From NCBI RefSeq assembly GCF_006345805.1, contig NC_043019.1, positions 12,275,360 through 12,339,359 on the forward strand: DNA of 64,000 nt, in the 5' to 3' direction. A model generated the notes under the pieces. It saw only the letters and a list, made by a program, of their open reading frames with translations. It made no database searches and was not told where the DNA came from. Positions 53,494 to 57,727 of this stretch are shown here, one piece after another. This DNA comes from Octopus sinensis (taxonomy: Eukaryota). Positions within the stretch are counted from its first letter, which is position 1. Each line of letters opens with the position of its first letter. The position numbers were made by a program, and so were the translations under genes.

Positions 53494-54840
53494 TTAACAT
53501 CCAGTTTCCATTTTGGAATGGGTTGGATGGTAATGTTAATGATAAAGATTTTCTAATTTTAGTTGTTTTTGTAGTGTATGGTTAGAGTTAGGGTTTGTAT
53601 TTTTTTTCTCCCTTCACTGAGTTGACCTGTGTCCTCACTATTTACCAAGATTGTGTGCAGGTAAAAATAAAGGGTTGTTGGGTTGTTGTTGTTCTACCTG
53701 GTATTAGCTCTGATTGAGCATTTATGACCAAAATCATTCCAGCCATGACCATCGTGTCTTATAGTTTTGGTCATAATGTTATTACATCTAGGTTTGCATT
53801 ATTCAATGCATGCTTTTATTTTTTAGACAGTCAGCTGTGATTTGAGAGATACTTGGCTGCTGTTTTCAGCAGAACAAACTACCATTTAGGGAGCTTCTTG
53901 TTGACATAGTAACCTAGTTTGCTTCTTCAGGTTTCTAGGTTAAAAAAAAATAGAAATAAATAAAATTGATTTTTCAAGTCTTCAGGTATCAATGTATAAG
54001 GTTTTGAATTAATCAGTCCCGGACCTTGAATATAGATACTTAGAAGTTTATGGTATTGCTTCTTATATTATCTATAAATAGTTGCTCTTTCTTTCTTCCT
54101 TCCTTTCTCTTGCTCTCCTTTCCTTGCTCTCCTCTCCTTGCTCTCCTCTCCTTGCTCCCTTTCTTGCTTTCTCTTATTCTCTCCCCTCACATTGTCTCTC
54201 CTCTCATTCTCTCAAAGTAGACACCATGAGACATCATACAAGAAATGCGACACTCTTTGTAAGTTAATACATGGGATGTGAATGTGTATAGATATTCTGA
54301 AGTAACTGAAGACAGACAAATCCACAGGGCTCCGTTGGATTAACTTACCTTAAATATAACAGAATGATTGGATTGAAATCAGCTGGTGATGTGTGACAAG
54401 GAATAGCCTGAAAGACAACTTTGGTGGTGGTTACAGTGGCAGCATTGTTCTGTTGTTATGTTAGTCCCAAGTCGGTTTTGATTTAGAAAACTCATGATTA
54501 AAGAATGTCCAAGATGTGACCATCAAATTTTTTATTTTTGCTTTCAGTTTACCCAAGAAAAAGTAATGCCTATTTATTCACATTGTTTTGAATTTGTGTC
54601 AAAAATCTGAAACCATTATTTACAACTTTACCTATTTTTATTAAGATCATTTATTTCATGTCTCTTGAAGTTTCTAAGTTCTTATGATGTAAACAACATA
54701 CAATTCTCACTAGAACAGATGGAGAAAATCGAAAGTCTAGCTTTGGTGTAATGGTAGAACATCTGTCATGTTTTCAGTAGATGTGGGTTTGAGTCCCATG
54801 AGCACCCATGAGTTTTACTCTTTCCATTTAAAGATTTCTT

Positions 54841-55067
54841 TTAACCATTTAGTGTTCAGATTATTCTATCAAACATAATGCTTATTGATTCCCATTGATT
54901 TGAATTAATCATGCATTATCTCATATCTTCAAGATCTTGATGGTGTAATTACTTAATGTAGAATAACATTGTAGGGTAGGTGTGAGAGCCTGGATCTGGT
55001 CAGTTTGAACATAAAACAGATTAAATATTTTGGTCGGATATGGCCGGTTTAAATACTAAAGGGTTAA
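54841..55067. mobile_element. piggyBac-like MITE family 1
   Basis: Nearly identical to 12265-12491. Confidence 0.85.
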
Positions 55068-55170
55068 ACCGGCCATATCCGGCCTAAATATTCTACATGT
55101 CTTATATTCAAATAAACAATCATTGAAACCTCAAAGCTGTAAGATAATGCATGATTAATTAAAAACAATT

Positions 55171-55511
55171 AATAAATCTCCGAACGAGATGTAAACAGTA
55201 ACCACTCGACAACGTAAAGTGTACTAGCCATCTGAATGTGGCTAGCCACTGGGGGTGGGTGTTACTGAAGCTTTTAGCCCCAGGAGATCATCGTCTCCAG
55301 CTGGCTTTAGACACACTTTCTGTGCCCTTCTGATATTCGCTGGGAAAAACATTAGATATTCGCAAACAGGTCTTTTCAATCGAAAACCGGTGATTACCGT
55401 ACGTTGACGAGAGGCAAAAACCTCGAAACTATAGTCCGTATGTATCACTTAGGTTTTCGAGAGGGGATGACCTCCCTTTGCGAATATCAGAAGGGCACAG
55501 AAAGTGTGTCA
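55171..55511 (+). mobile_element. Hammerhead-containing structured insertion (Penelope-like/retrozyme-type candidate)
   Basis: 14-bp TSD aattaaaaacaatt at 55157-55170 and 55512-55525. Perfect 31-bp inverted repeat 55310-55340/55480-55510 encloses the ribozyme motif. Inserted in a piggyBac-like MITE. Confidence 0.7.
55400..55440 (+). ncRNA. Type I hammerhead ribozyme motif
   Basis: TACG-TTGACGA-GAGG-caaaaa-CCTC-GAA-ACTATAGT-C-CGTA: stems I, II and a palindromic stem III, GUC cleavage triplet, C3U core variant. Confidence 0.8.
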
Positions 55512-56456
55512 AATTAAAAACAATTTGAGTGAAAAATTATTACATTTAACAGAGTAATCTGAACACTAAAGGCGGGGCGAGCTGGCAGAAACGTCAGCAT
55601 GCCGGGCGAAATGCTTAGCGATATTTTGTCTGTCTTTACGTTCTGAGTTCAAATTCCGCCGAGGTTGACTTTGTCTTCCATCCTTTCGGGGTCGATAAAT
55701 TAAGTACCACTTGCGTACTGGGGTCAATCTAATCGACTGGCCCCATATCCAACATTTCGGGCTTTGTGTCTAGAGAAGAAAAGAATCCGAACACTAAAGG
55801 GTTAAACACCAAAATTACACTTCAAGTTTCACTGTTAAAAACACAGGTTTTCTTTCTTATTTTCCAGTCTGTACAATTGAAGTAGCATTTAAACTGGCCA
55901 TAAATATAACTGGGCCCAAATATTTTACTGGGCCCAGTTATATGTTCAGCCCCAGATAAATCTGGCTTCTCACACCTACCATACAATGACATTCTAAAAA
56001 TAAACAAAGGCATCATTAAAATCTTGAAGGTACAAGATAATAAATAATAAACTTAAAGCAATAAGAATAAATATTACATTTGACAGAGTAATCTGTATGC
56101 TAAAGGGTTAAATTAAGATAGCTATTCATGTAGAATACTTAACATATATACACCATTGACAGGCAAGTCACTGCAGTTTTCATCAGAGATAAAATCTCTT
56201 ATGGGCATCTATCTCTATCCGCTCAGTCGAAGTCGACTCTCGGTCACTCGTTGGATCAGTGTCCTCCAGTCAGTTCTATCCTGGGCTGCTTCTTTCAGAC
56301 TGGCTATGTCCATTCTGTTTTTGTTTAAGGTAAAATCTCATTTAAGCATATGGCTGGCTGTGAATATGTCATTGACAAAACCAAACAAGGCTGAAATGAA
56401 TGCATCTAGTATTCCTGTTAGCCATTGTTGTCTCATGATATGTTTTTAAACACAGT

Positions 56457-56790
56457 ATGTGGATTCCATGGACAGCGAGGCTCACCAATGGAGAAGTTCT
56501 TTAGCAGATAAGGCCGAAAATGTCGCTAGAAGCTAGGATCACCAAGCGTAGATTGGCATATTTCGGTCATATTATGCGGAGAAAATCCCTGGAGAAGGAC
56601 ATCATGCTTGGAATGGTCAGTGGCAAGAGAGGAAGAGGCCGACCAAGAACCTGCTGGCTTGACACCATCAAGAGTGATACCGGAATGGACATGGCCAATC
56701 TGAAAGAAGTGGCCAGGATAGAACTGACTGGAGGACACTGATCCAATGAGTGACCGAGAGTTGACTTCGACTGAGCGGATAGAGAGAGAT
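56457..56790 (+). mobile_element. RTE-clade LINE 3' fragment (degenerate ORF C-terminus)
   Basis: IPWTAR..N.EVL...SLEARITKRRLAYFGHIMRRKSLEKDIMLGMVSGKRGRGRPRTCWLDTIK matches the RTE/BovB-type RT C-terminus. It has a stop and a frameshift. Confidence 0.85.
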
Positions 56791-57192: not shown

Positions 57193-57432
57193 TGAAAACT
57201 GCAGTAACCTGCCTGTGAATGGAGAATATGCATTAAGTATGATATATAGGTGGCTATTTTGAAATAAAATTAGTGAAATAAAATGAATGTGAAATTTTTG
57301 GCAAATGTTTAATGTACATTACTAAATGGTTGTTTTTCTTTCTGTTTTGCTTCTAGATTTAAAGCATATGTCAGTGAGATTTGTGCTTTTGGGCAGCGTG
57401 AATTTAGCGCCGATGTACTTCCCTTCGACAGC

Positions 57433-57727
57433 ATGGAGGAAACCTACATCTACGTAGCAAACTATGAGTACACCCCGGACGTCAACCACAAGGGGGACAT
57501 TGCTATCTCAGTTGGTGACCAGCTGCTGGTCACCACACCAGTCTCTTCCAATTTTAAAGGCAGCCTAGAGAAACCGGAGGGCTGGCTGCGAGGAGTCAAC
57601 GTCAACAAGAATGTTTGTGGGAATTTCCCCGGTAATTATGTGCGGTTTGAGGGGAAACTGCCCCCCAGAGATCCACCACCCCCATACAGACAACCTCAGA
57701 ATACCGAATTACGTCCTTGCACAGAAA
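57433..57727 (+). CDS. PIK3R1: Coding part of exon 57357-57727: SH3 domain plus Pro-rich linker, PI3K class IA regulatory subunit p85-like (partial gene)
   Basis: Translation MEETYIYVANYEYTPD...GDIAISVGDQLLV...EKPEGWLRGVNVNKNVCGNFPGNYVRFEGKLPPRDPPPPYR has SH3 motifs with the long insert and GWLxGxN...GxFPGxYV typical of p85, then a PxxP linker. Acceptor: pyrimidine tract + ttctag ending 57356. Donor: gtgagt at 57728 (phase 1). The PIK3R1/2 paralog assignment cannot be resolved. Confidence 0.8.

Follow-up and report, generated by a model that had tools for sequence, protein, structure and literature searches.

A truncated, back-to-back retrozyme copy in Octopus sinensis, likely inserted by Penelope-type machinery from uncut RNA

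The window analysed here, a 64-kb stretch of the Octopus sinensis genome, contains a 341-bp insertion with a hammerhead ribozyme motif, located upstream of an exon of a p85-like gene. This arrangement raises the question of what the insertion is, how it reached its present site, and whether it could act on the transcript of its neighbor. The original prediction described a single element on one strand, in which a hammerhead crowns a rod-like hairpin of ~200 nt, and regarded it as a young, non-autonomous mobile RNA that could cut the host pre-mRNA. We consider another reading likely: a ~355-nt retrozyme left a truncated copy here, with its two pieces back to back, which Penelope machinery inserted from an RNA that was uncut and probably circular. 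On its own, this copy is predicted to have little activity.

The insertion is flanked by two copies of the 14-bp sequence AATTAAAAACAATT, at 55157-55170 on the left and 55512-55525 on the right, as the original prediction held. It was received by a young, high-copy host repeat with TTAACCCTTTAG-like ends (55064-55809), which lies in a nest of similar high-copy repeats, also with TTAACCCTTTAG-like ends (54840-56112). The 14-mer occurs once in all 11 printed paralogous copies of the host repeat (exactly in 9 of them), and two of the remaining three paralogues align contiguously across the insertion site. Because these paralogous repeats hold the motif once, AATTAAAAACAATT is a true target-site duplication. 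About ten copies of the host composite (55064-55809) are 91-99% identical. Sequence joints without the insertion were seen in two other sequencing runs; since they may stem from paralogous host repeats, an insertion polymorphism is not established. A further fragment nearby (56505-56741) has no Pfam match; we take it to resemble the C-terminus of an RTE-type LINE ORF.

Mapping on the family monomer showed that the insertion consists of two pieces of a ~355-nt tandem unit placed head to head, and not of one element on one strand. The first arm (55171-55340) maps to the minus strand; it represents the 3' part of the monomer (positions ~187-357) and ends at the distal, or 'long', 3' end. Its outer stretch (55171-55210, minus strand), hereafter the tail, lies between the two 3' ends of the family, with the proximal end at 55211. 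The second arm (55339-55510, plus strand) is an inverted piece covering monomer positions ~42-216 and carries the hammerhead; 2 nt, GC, are common to both arms at the junction. The perfect 31-bp pairing of 55310-55340 with 55480-55510 was confirmed as exact. This pairing is the overlap of the two arms, a product of the inversion, and not a cap designed into a ~200-nt RNA rod. Likewise, the hairpins predicted in the 5' part are present in the sequence but are not a structure of the element, being its antisense; both they and the 31-bp arm appear on the plus strand because the two arms were joined in inverted orientation. The inner stems are present as described, and the inner part of the rod, a long bulged hairpin that extends stem I (55355-55488, plus strand), is intrinsic to the element. 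The insertion region folds better than its shuffles (z = -9.4; 0 of 100 equally good).

The window copy is itself sub-monomeric and has a GC content of 45.5%. Compared with the majority of 16 subfamily loci, arm 1 shows one difference in 170 nt, and arm 2 two substitutions plus small indels in 172 nt. The copy is young, and the view of it as a young, non-autonomous and multi-copy retroelement gains support. No second family copy was found in the 64-kb window, and neither was a PLE (Penelope-like element) protein match or the RT + GIY-YIG ORF of an autonomous PLE.

Searching the 2.7-Gb genome for copies and tandem dimers, as had been proposed, revealed thousands of relatives and tandem units. 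Examination of 40 of 2,892 candidates gave 121 matches. The terminal (tail) pattern has 2,925 exact matches genome-wide and the subfamily core pattern of the window copy 314, each with 0 in the control. The monomer measures 352-360 nt, and in tandem arms its end runs directly into its own start. The longest arms reach 1,003 nt, or 2.8 units, without coding sequence between units. The majority monomer has a self-paired circular fold (z -6.0, 60 shuffles). Hence, the family shows the features of non-LTR retrozymes: a non-coding unit of 170-400 nt with one type I hammerhead, arranged in tandem, with GC below 50% and duplications of more than 4 bp. We class it as a non-LTR retrozyme whose core variant is unusual and for which cleavage is predicted. 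A very young sister subfamily (L133:5636-5972 and L151-L170) has copies 95-98% identical, 2,093 candidates and a canonical core, and is our favored candidate for activity assays. At another locus (L090:1070-2692), a retrozyme copy is interrupted by an inserted 1.6-kb element, which contains a zinc-knuckle-like frame of 325 aa and is flanked by a duplication of ~10 bp. Six hammerhead cores on the same strand, in ~350-bp steps (one of them double), were found at G000:C1:105634464-105636604; this array is a longer tandem of a C-G subfamily outside the sampled set.

The insertions were characterized in two sets of 60 loci with 100 arms each, the first picked by the hammerhead pattern and the second, from further loci, by the tail pattern. 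In the hammerhead-selected set, inverted arm pairs occur in 30 of 60 loci and are absent from the other 30, and 31 of 100 arms are longer than one unit. One proximal (monomer 311-320) and one distal (355-13) 3' end were found in 24 of the 32 inverted pairs of this set. The remaining 8, by our own classing, have an aberrant early end like that of the window copy, whose plus arm stops ~100 nt short of the usual proximal end (monomer 216 vs ~317). Among the tail-selected arms, 92 of 100 have 3' ends within two clusters ~45 nt apart. (TA)4 directly follows 53 of 92 ends, as against 6.9% of 2,040 background windows, and duplications outside microsatellites are mostly 11-16 bp. Inversion junctions often fall within the monomer's own internal inverted repeats, as at L005, L012 and L008, which suggests that microhomology guides the joining of two cDNAs.

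Large inverted repeats with duplications, as seen in many copies, would also fit a DNA transposon of the MITE or foldback type, with the arms as terminal repeats and a hammerhead-like motif arising by chance. However, the arms are unequal, with random truncation at the 5' side and tandem repetition, half of the hammerhead-selected loci have no inverted pair, and the core is invariant while the stems covary among subfamilies that are separated by as much as ~1.1 substitutions per site (106 rows). Arm structure, read-through and covariation thus largely refute this explanation, to which we give almost no credence.

The hammerhead motif has the layout of type I. It spans 55399-55441 on the plus strand and comprises stem I (55399-55403/55437-55441), the core U3-UGAC-G8-A (TTGACGA, 55404-55410), stem II (55411-55424), GAAA (55425-55428) and the stem III palindrome ACUAUAGU (55428-55435), all on that strand, with the cut predicted after C 55436. 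The TTGACGA core, stem II, GAAAC-TATA-GTC and the predicted cut were all as originally proposed, and the sequence supports assignment to the type I hammerheads of the Penelope/retrozyme kind with palindromic stem III. The type I core (C3-U4-G5-A6-N7-G8-A9 / G12-A13-A14 / A15.1-U16.1 / H17) is matched except at U3, so that the 3-8 pair of the window copy is a U.G wobble. An Rfam scan, one of the checks suggested, gave no hammerhead match at the window motif nor at canonical-core sisters (4 loci); as the sisters were missed too, this result is uninformative.

Across 15 hand-picked subfamily representatives, U4, G5, A6, A9, GAAAC and GUC are invariant, and three stems, open at stem I, show covariation. 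Paired cells amount to 96.6%, with double changes in 11 of 21 pairs and 0 of 500 shuffles as high, a control that ignores relatedness and is inflated by kinship. The outer helix is paired in 88% of cells in an alignment that is partly mis-registered there. The stem III loop is self-complementary in 95.8% of cells; its variants across subfamilies (ACUAUAGU, ACUGCAGU, ACUCGAGU, ACCCGGGU and ACCGGU) are self-complementary without exception. This suggests a double hammerhead, in line with the dimer model in the part of PMC4209133 consulted. Both core conservation and stem covariation among genomic copies, on which the prediction had been staked, were therefore found, and the sequence comparison indicates that the ribozyme fold is under selection.

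The 3-8 pair is formed in all 15 representatives (C-G in 7, U-A in 4 and U.G in 4). By hand count, the first 100 of 1,663 genome-wide matches include 42 C-G, 30 U.G, 28 U-A and 0 C.A. With a single pattern, C.A accounts for 31 of the 1,663; this group is small, and because some of its members stand in tandem, mismatches can be transmitted. When 131 rows were reduced to 60 for a tree, the subfamilies formed a ladder C-G, U-A, U.G, U-A, C-G, the direction of which is not proven because the tree is midpoint-rooted. The path from the TGCA/U-A to the CG/C-G subfamily measures 0.64 substitutions per site, against terminal branches of 0.005-0.026, with branch lengths taken from ~190-nt segments and small classes poorly sampled. 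The C3U change had been taken as a variant that may weaken this copy; it is instead the state of the whole subfamily and of a large lineage within the covarying C-G/U-A/U.G series, and thus U3.G8 is not decay. U3.G8 may nevertheless be slow, since in the portion of PMC9901934 available, saturation mutagenesis of another hammerhead left single and double mutants at these positions with low activity, except for the C-G to G-C swap. Our literature search on hammerhead C3U or U3-G8 returned no description of a lineage-wide or retrozyme U3.G8, and the PLE variants of Lunse et al. may list it. As far as the accessible part of PMC7151607 goes, a U3...G8 variant is quoted solely for a motif from a halophile, in which two bases are inserted.

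The neighboring gene could be a target. The internal exon at 57357-57727 (plus strand) encodes a PI3K p85-like SH3 domain, and the hammerhead is sense to it, as anticipated; the match, to p85 alpha, came from a PDB search (E 3.9e-6), and a Pfam search missed this exon. The exon has splice sites, including an acceptor, and a 3,166-nt contig from a run guessed to be RNA covers 57355-57727 plus 28 further letters on the 5' side. Given the acceptor and these further letters, the insertion probably lies in the upstream intron, in sense orientation. This position would suit the idea that the insertion is a rod-like RNA complete in itself, and that its single hammerhead affects the gene by cutting the p85-like pre-mRNA. 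Stem II of the hammerhead is closed by a canonical G-C pair, and according to the part of PMC7229834 consulted, an axolotl monomer with 2-bp stem III was cleaved 22% in an hour, while coral and mussel monomers were cleaved well. Several facts argue against such an effect. The outer arm of the rod is the inversion overlap, no partner hammerhead lies nearby, and the core is U3.G8. Moreover, the most stable fold of the window copy pairs the core G5-A6-C7 with the GUC triplet, with a stem III probability of 0.001 and the active monomer fold at +4.6 kcal/mol. The contig joins the exon to other upstream letters, although it comes from another individual or species that may or may not carry the insertion. 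According to these folding models the window copy is probably inert. That it cleaves the host pre-mRNA on its own is possible but unlikely, and as an account of the insertion we hold this explanation to be very improbable.

A further question is which RNA served as template. Of the 100 tail-selected arms, 41 continue across the predicted cut site and none has its 5' end at +1 to +5, the nearest being at +6. With read-through this frequent and no end at the cut, cut linear monomers were not the templates; the read-through implies circles or uncut multimers. Within-insertion and typical median distances between copies (0.028 vs 0.097, 0.0025 vs 0.028, 0.017 vs 0.033) show a homogeneity of units inside insertions that fits circles and multimers alike, in a nearest-neighbour comparison that is biased. 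Folding energies of double and single hammerheads are not decisive either: for two U3 dimers, the double hammerhead equals the monomer-active form, ~10 kcal/mol above the free fold. Contigs from the run guessed to be RNA cover pieces of the family, and strand, ends and level are not readable from them.

The same family could have been mobilized by Penelope from uncut linear multimers without any circles, the hammerhead cutting rarely or at another stage, for instance in releasing RNA from host transcripts. The read-through fits this scenario equally well. In addition, PLE insertion in vitro was unaffected by hammerhead mutants, with unprocessed RNA as the dominant substrate (PMC11167929, in the part available), and of nine dimers of Xenopus retrozymes, eight were not seen to cleave (bioRxiv 10.64898/2026.07.22.740005, likewise in part). 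A multimer cut anywhere would, however, stop reverse transcription at +1, which 0 of 100 arms do, though covariation keeps the active fold. Circles appear favored over uncut multimers because the active fold is selected and yet no cut ends were captured, and because coral, mussel and axolotl retrozymes of similar size accumulate as circles (PMC7229834, in the part consulted). We regard the scenario of uncut multimers as somewhat unlikely.

As for the machinery, the family has what is expected of non-autonomous PLE derivatives: a tail, two 3' ends, inverted and tandem truncated copies, and AT-rich or microsatellite targets. In the portions consulted, PLE copies are described as partial tandems with an inverted truncated 5' copy, a tail at one end and a microsatellite bias (PMC8557442), and in vitro a PLE nicks both strands and starts reverse transcription at two internal sites (PMC11167929). 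The insertion structure of our family matches this PLE structure, which two nicks and two internal starts explain in vitro. The genome holds intact RT + GIY-YIG ORFs of 781 aa, in several near-identical copies, and of 775 aa. The 781-aa family is young (L134:2732-5074, L135-L138 and L140), with an overlapping upstream 479-aa frame; its 3' repeat contains a U3-A8 hammerhead-like motif of its own, its two 3' ends are separated by ~40 nt, and it is flanked by (TA)n. A second PLE family, at L133:2445-4769 (minus), has an intact 775-aa frame, upstream overlapping frames and, downstream, a different, degenerate hammerhead-like motif. It is plausible that the 781-aa family drives the retrozyme; no sequence homology between them was found. 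A likeness of their tails noticed by eye was rejected, as the alignment was no better than shuffles (207-314 of 500). An apparent autonomous partner at L133 was rejected as well: the match belongs to a sister retrozyme that is a separate insertion, located within a TA tract and oriented on the other strand. The proposed link to a Penelope RT/GIY-YIG ORF gains support from the intact ORFs and the insertion signature in the genome. As regards a homologous autonomous partner, no monomer similarity to PLE ends appeared in the 50 PLE loci read from 150 scored of 5,029 GIY-YIG candidates.

This sampling would leave room for the copies to be mere 3'-end fragments, or solo pseudo-LTRs, of an autonomous PLE missed by the sample, and PLE pseudo-LTRs do match Xenopus retrozymes in the part of bioRxiv 10.64898/2026.07.22.740005 consulted. 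Yet the monomer end joins its own start, uninterrupted by coding sequence, in arms that reach 2.8 units, and PLE protein matches lie near 8 of 120 retrozyme loci with no retrozyme-PLE ORF fusion among the 120 (L133 being the one examined base by base). Such an origin seems improbable to us.

Our preferred reading of a retrozyme mobilized by Penelope would work as follows. In tandem transcripts, pairing of the palindromic stem III would create a double hammerhead; the transcripts would be cut to monomers, and these would be ligated into circles. A Penelope protein would nick AT-rich DNA once on each strand, at positions separated by 11-16 bp, and reverse transcription would start internally at two sites ~45 nt apart, one per nick. 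The two cDNAs would run round the template, stop at random and join head to head, giving an inverted pair with the tail on one side. In the window copy, the second arm may have begun, or been cut, at monomer 216 instead of ~317. A bolder model, which we put forward tentatively, extends this scheme to a circular-RNA replicon of dimer-cleaved, ligated monomers on which the Penelope RT rolls from two fixed sites; its source would evolve ~25x faster than copies age, while the 3-8 pair walks from C-G through U-A, U.G and U-A back to C-G, with U.G active enough for hundreds of copies.

The following comparisons draw on the available parts of the cited works. Like animal non-LTR retrozymes (PMC7229834), with mussel repeats of 350-390 bp, the family has a ~355-nt non-coding unit in tandem, long duplications, a self-paired circular fold and a type I hammerhead whose stem III has 2 bp and a palindromic loop. 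Unlike them, it consists mostly of scattered copies that are truncated and inverted, its 3' ends map to two positions, and it includes a large U3.G8 lineage. The words 'inverted', 'tail' and 'TSD' do not occur in the main text of that work as far as it was available, yet larger TSDs are mentioned; our search of the literature on retrozyme mechanism found no report of these insertion signatures. With EN+ Penelope-like elements (PMC8557442; PAc in PMC11167929) it shares the tail, the inverted 5'-truncated copy, partial tandems, AT/microsatellite targets, two internal starts and a hammerhead in the repeat. It differs from them in having no ORF, a tail of ~45 nt rather than 30-40, and no homologous autonomous partner in the 50 loci. 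Retrozymes have already been argued, by homology, to be non-autonomous Penelope derivatives (bioRxiv 10.64898/2026.07.22.740005); the Xenopus retrozymes of that work resemble ours in this respect and in their monomer, dimer and multimer copies and co-occurrence with PLEs. The evidence there is homology and phylogeny, whereas in octopus it is an insertion signature without homology, and the animal group of octopus is not covered in the part consulted. As in the U3-A8 hammerheads of Schistosoma PLEs (PMC4209133) and in natural core variants (PMC3088659), the 3-8 tertiary pair covaries; unlike in Schistosoma, a single series of lineages includes C-G, U-A and U.G.

This analysis adds the evidence from insertion signatures, a count of read-through, the series of states at the 3-8 pair and a fast-evolving source lineage. 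Their weight rests on the family, and the lone window copy matters little by itself. The family bears on the way in which retrozymes of animals are mobilized and on the role of the hammerhead in Penelope elements. The published links are by homology, and in vitro the Penelope ribozyme is dispensable for insertion. One octopus family now combines mapped reverse transcription starts, read-through statistics, fold selection, a C-G/U-A/U.G series and intact candidate Penelope ORFs, and these combined features make the form of the template and the activity of the wobble directly testable.
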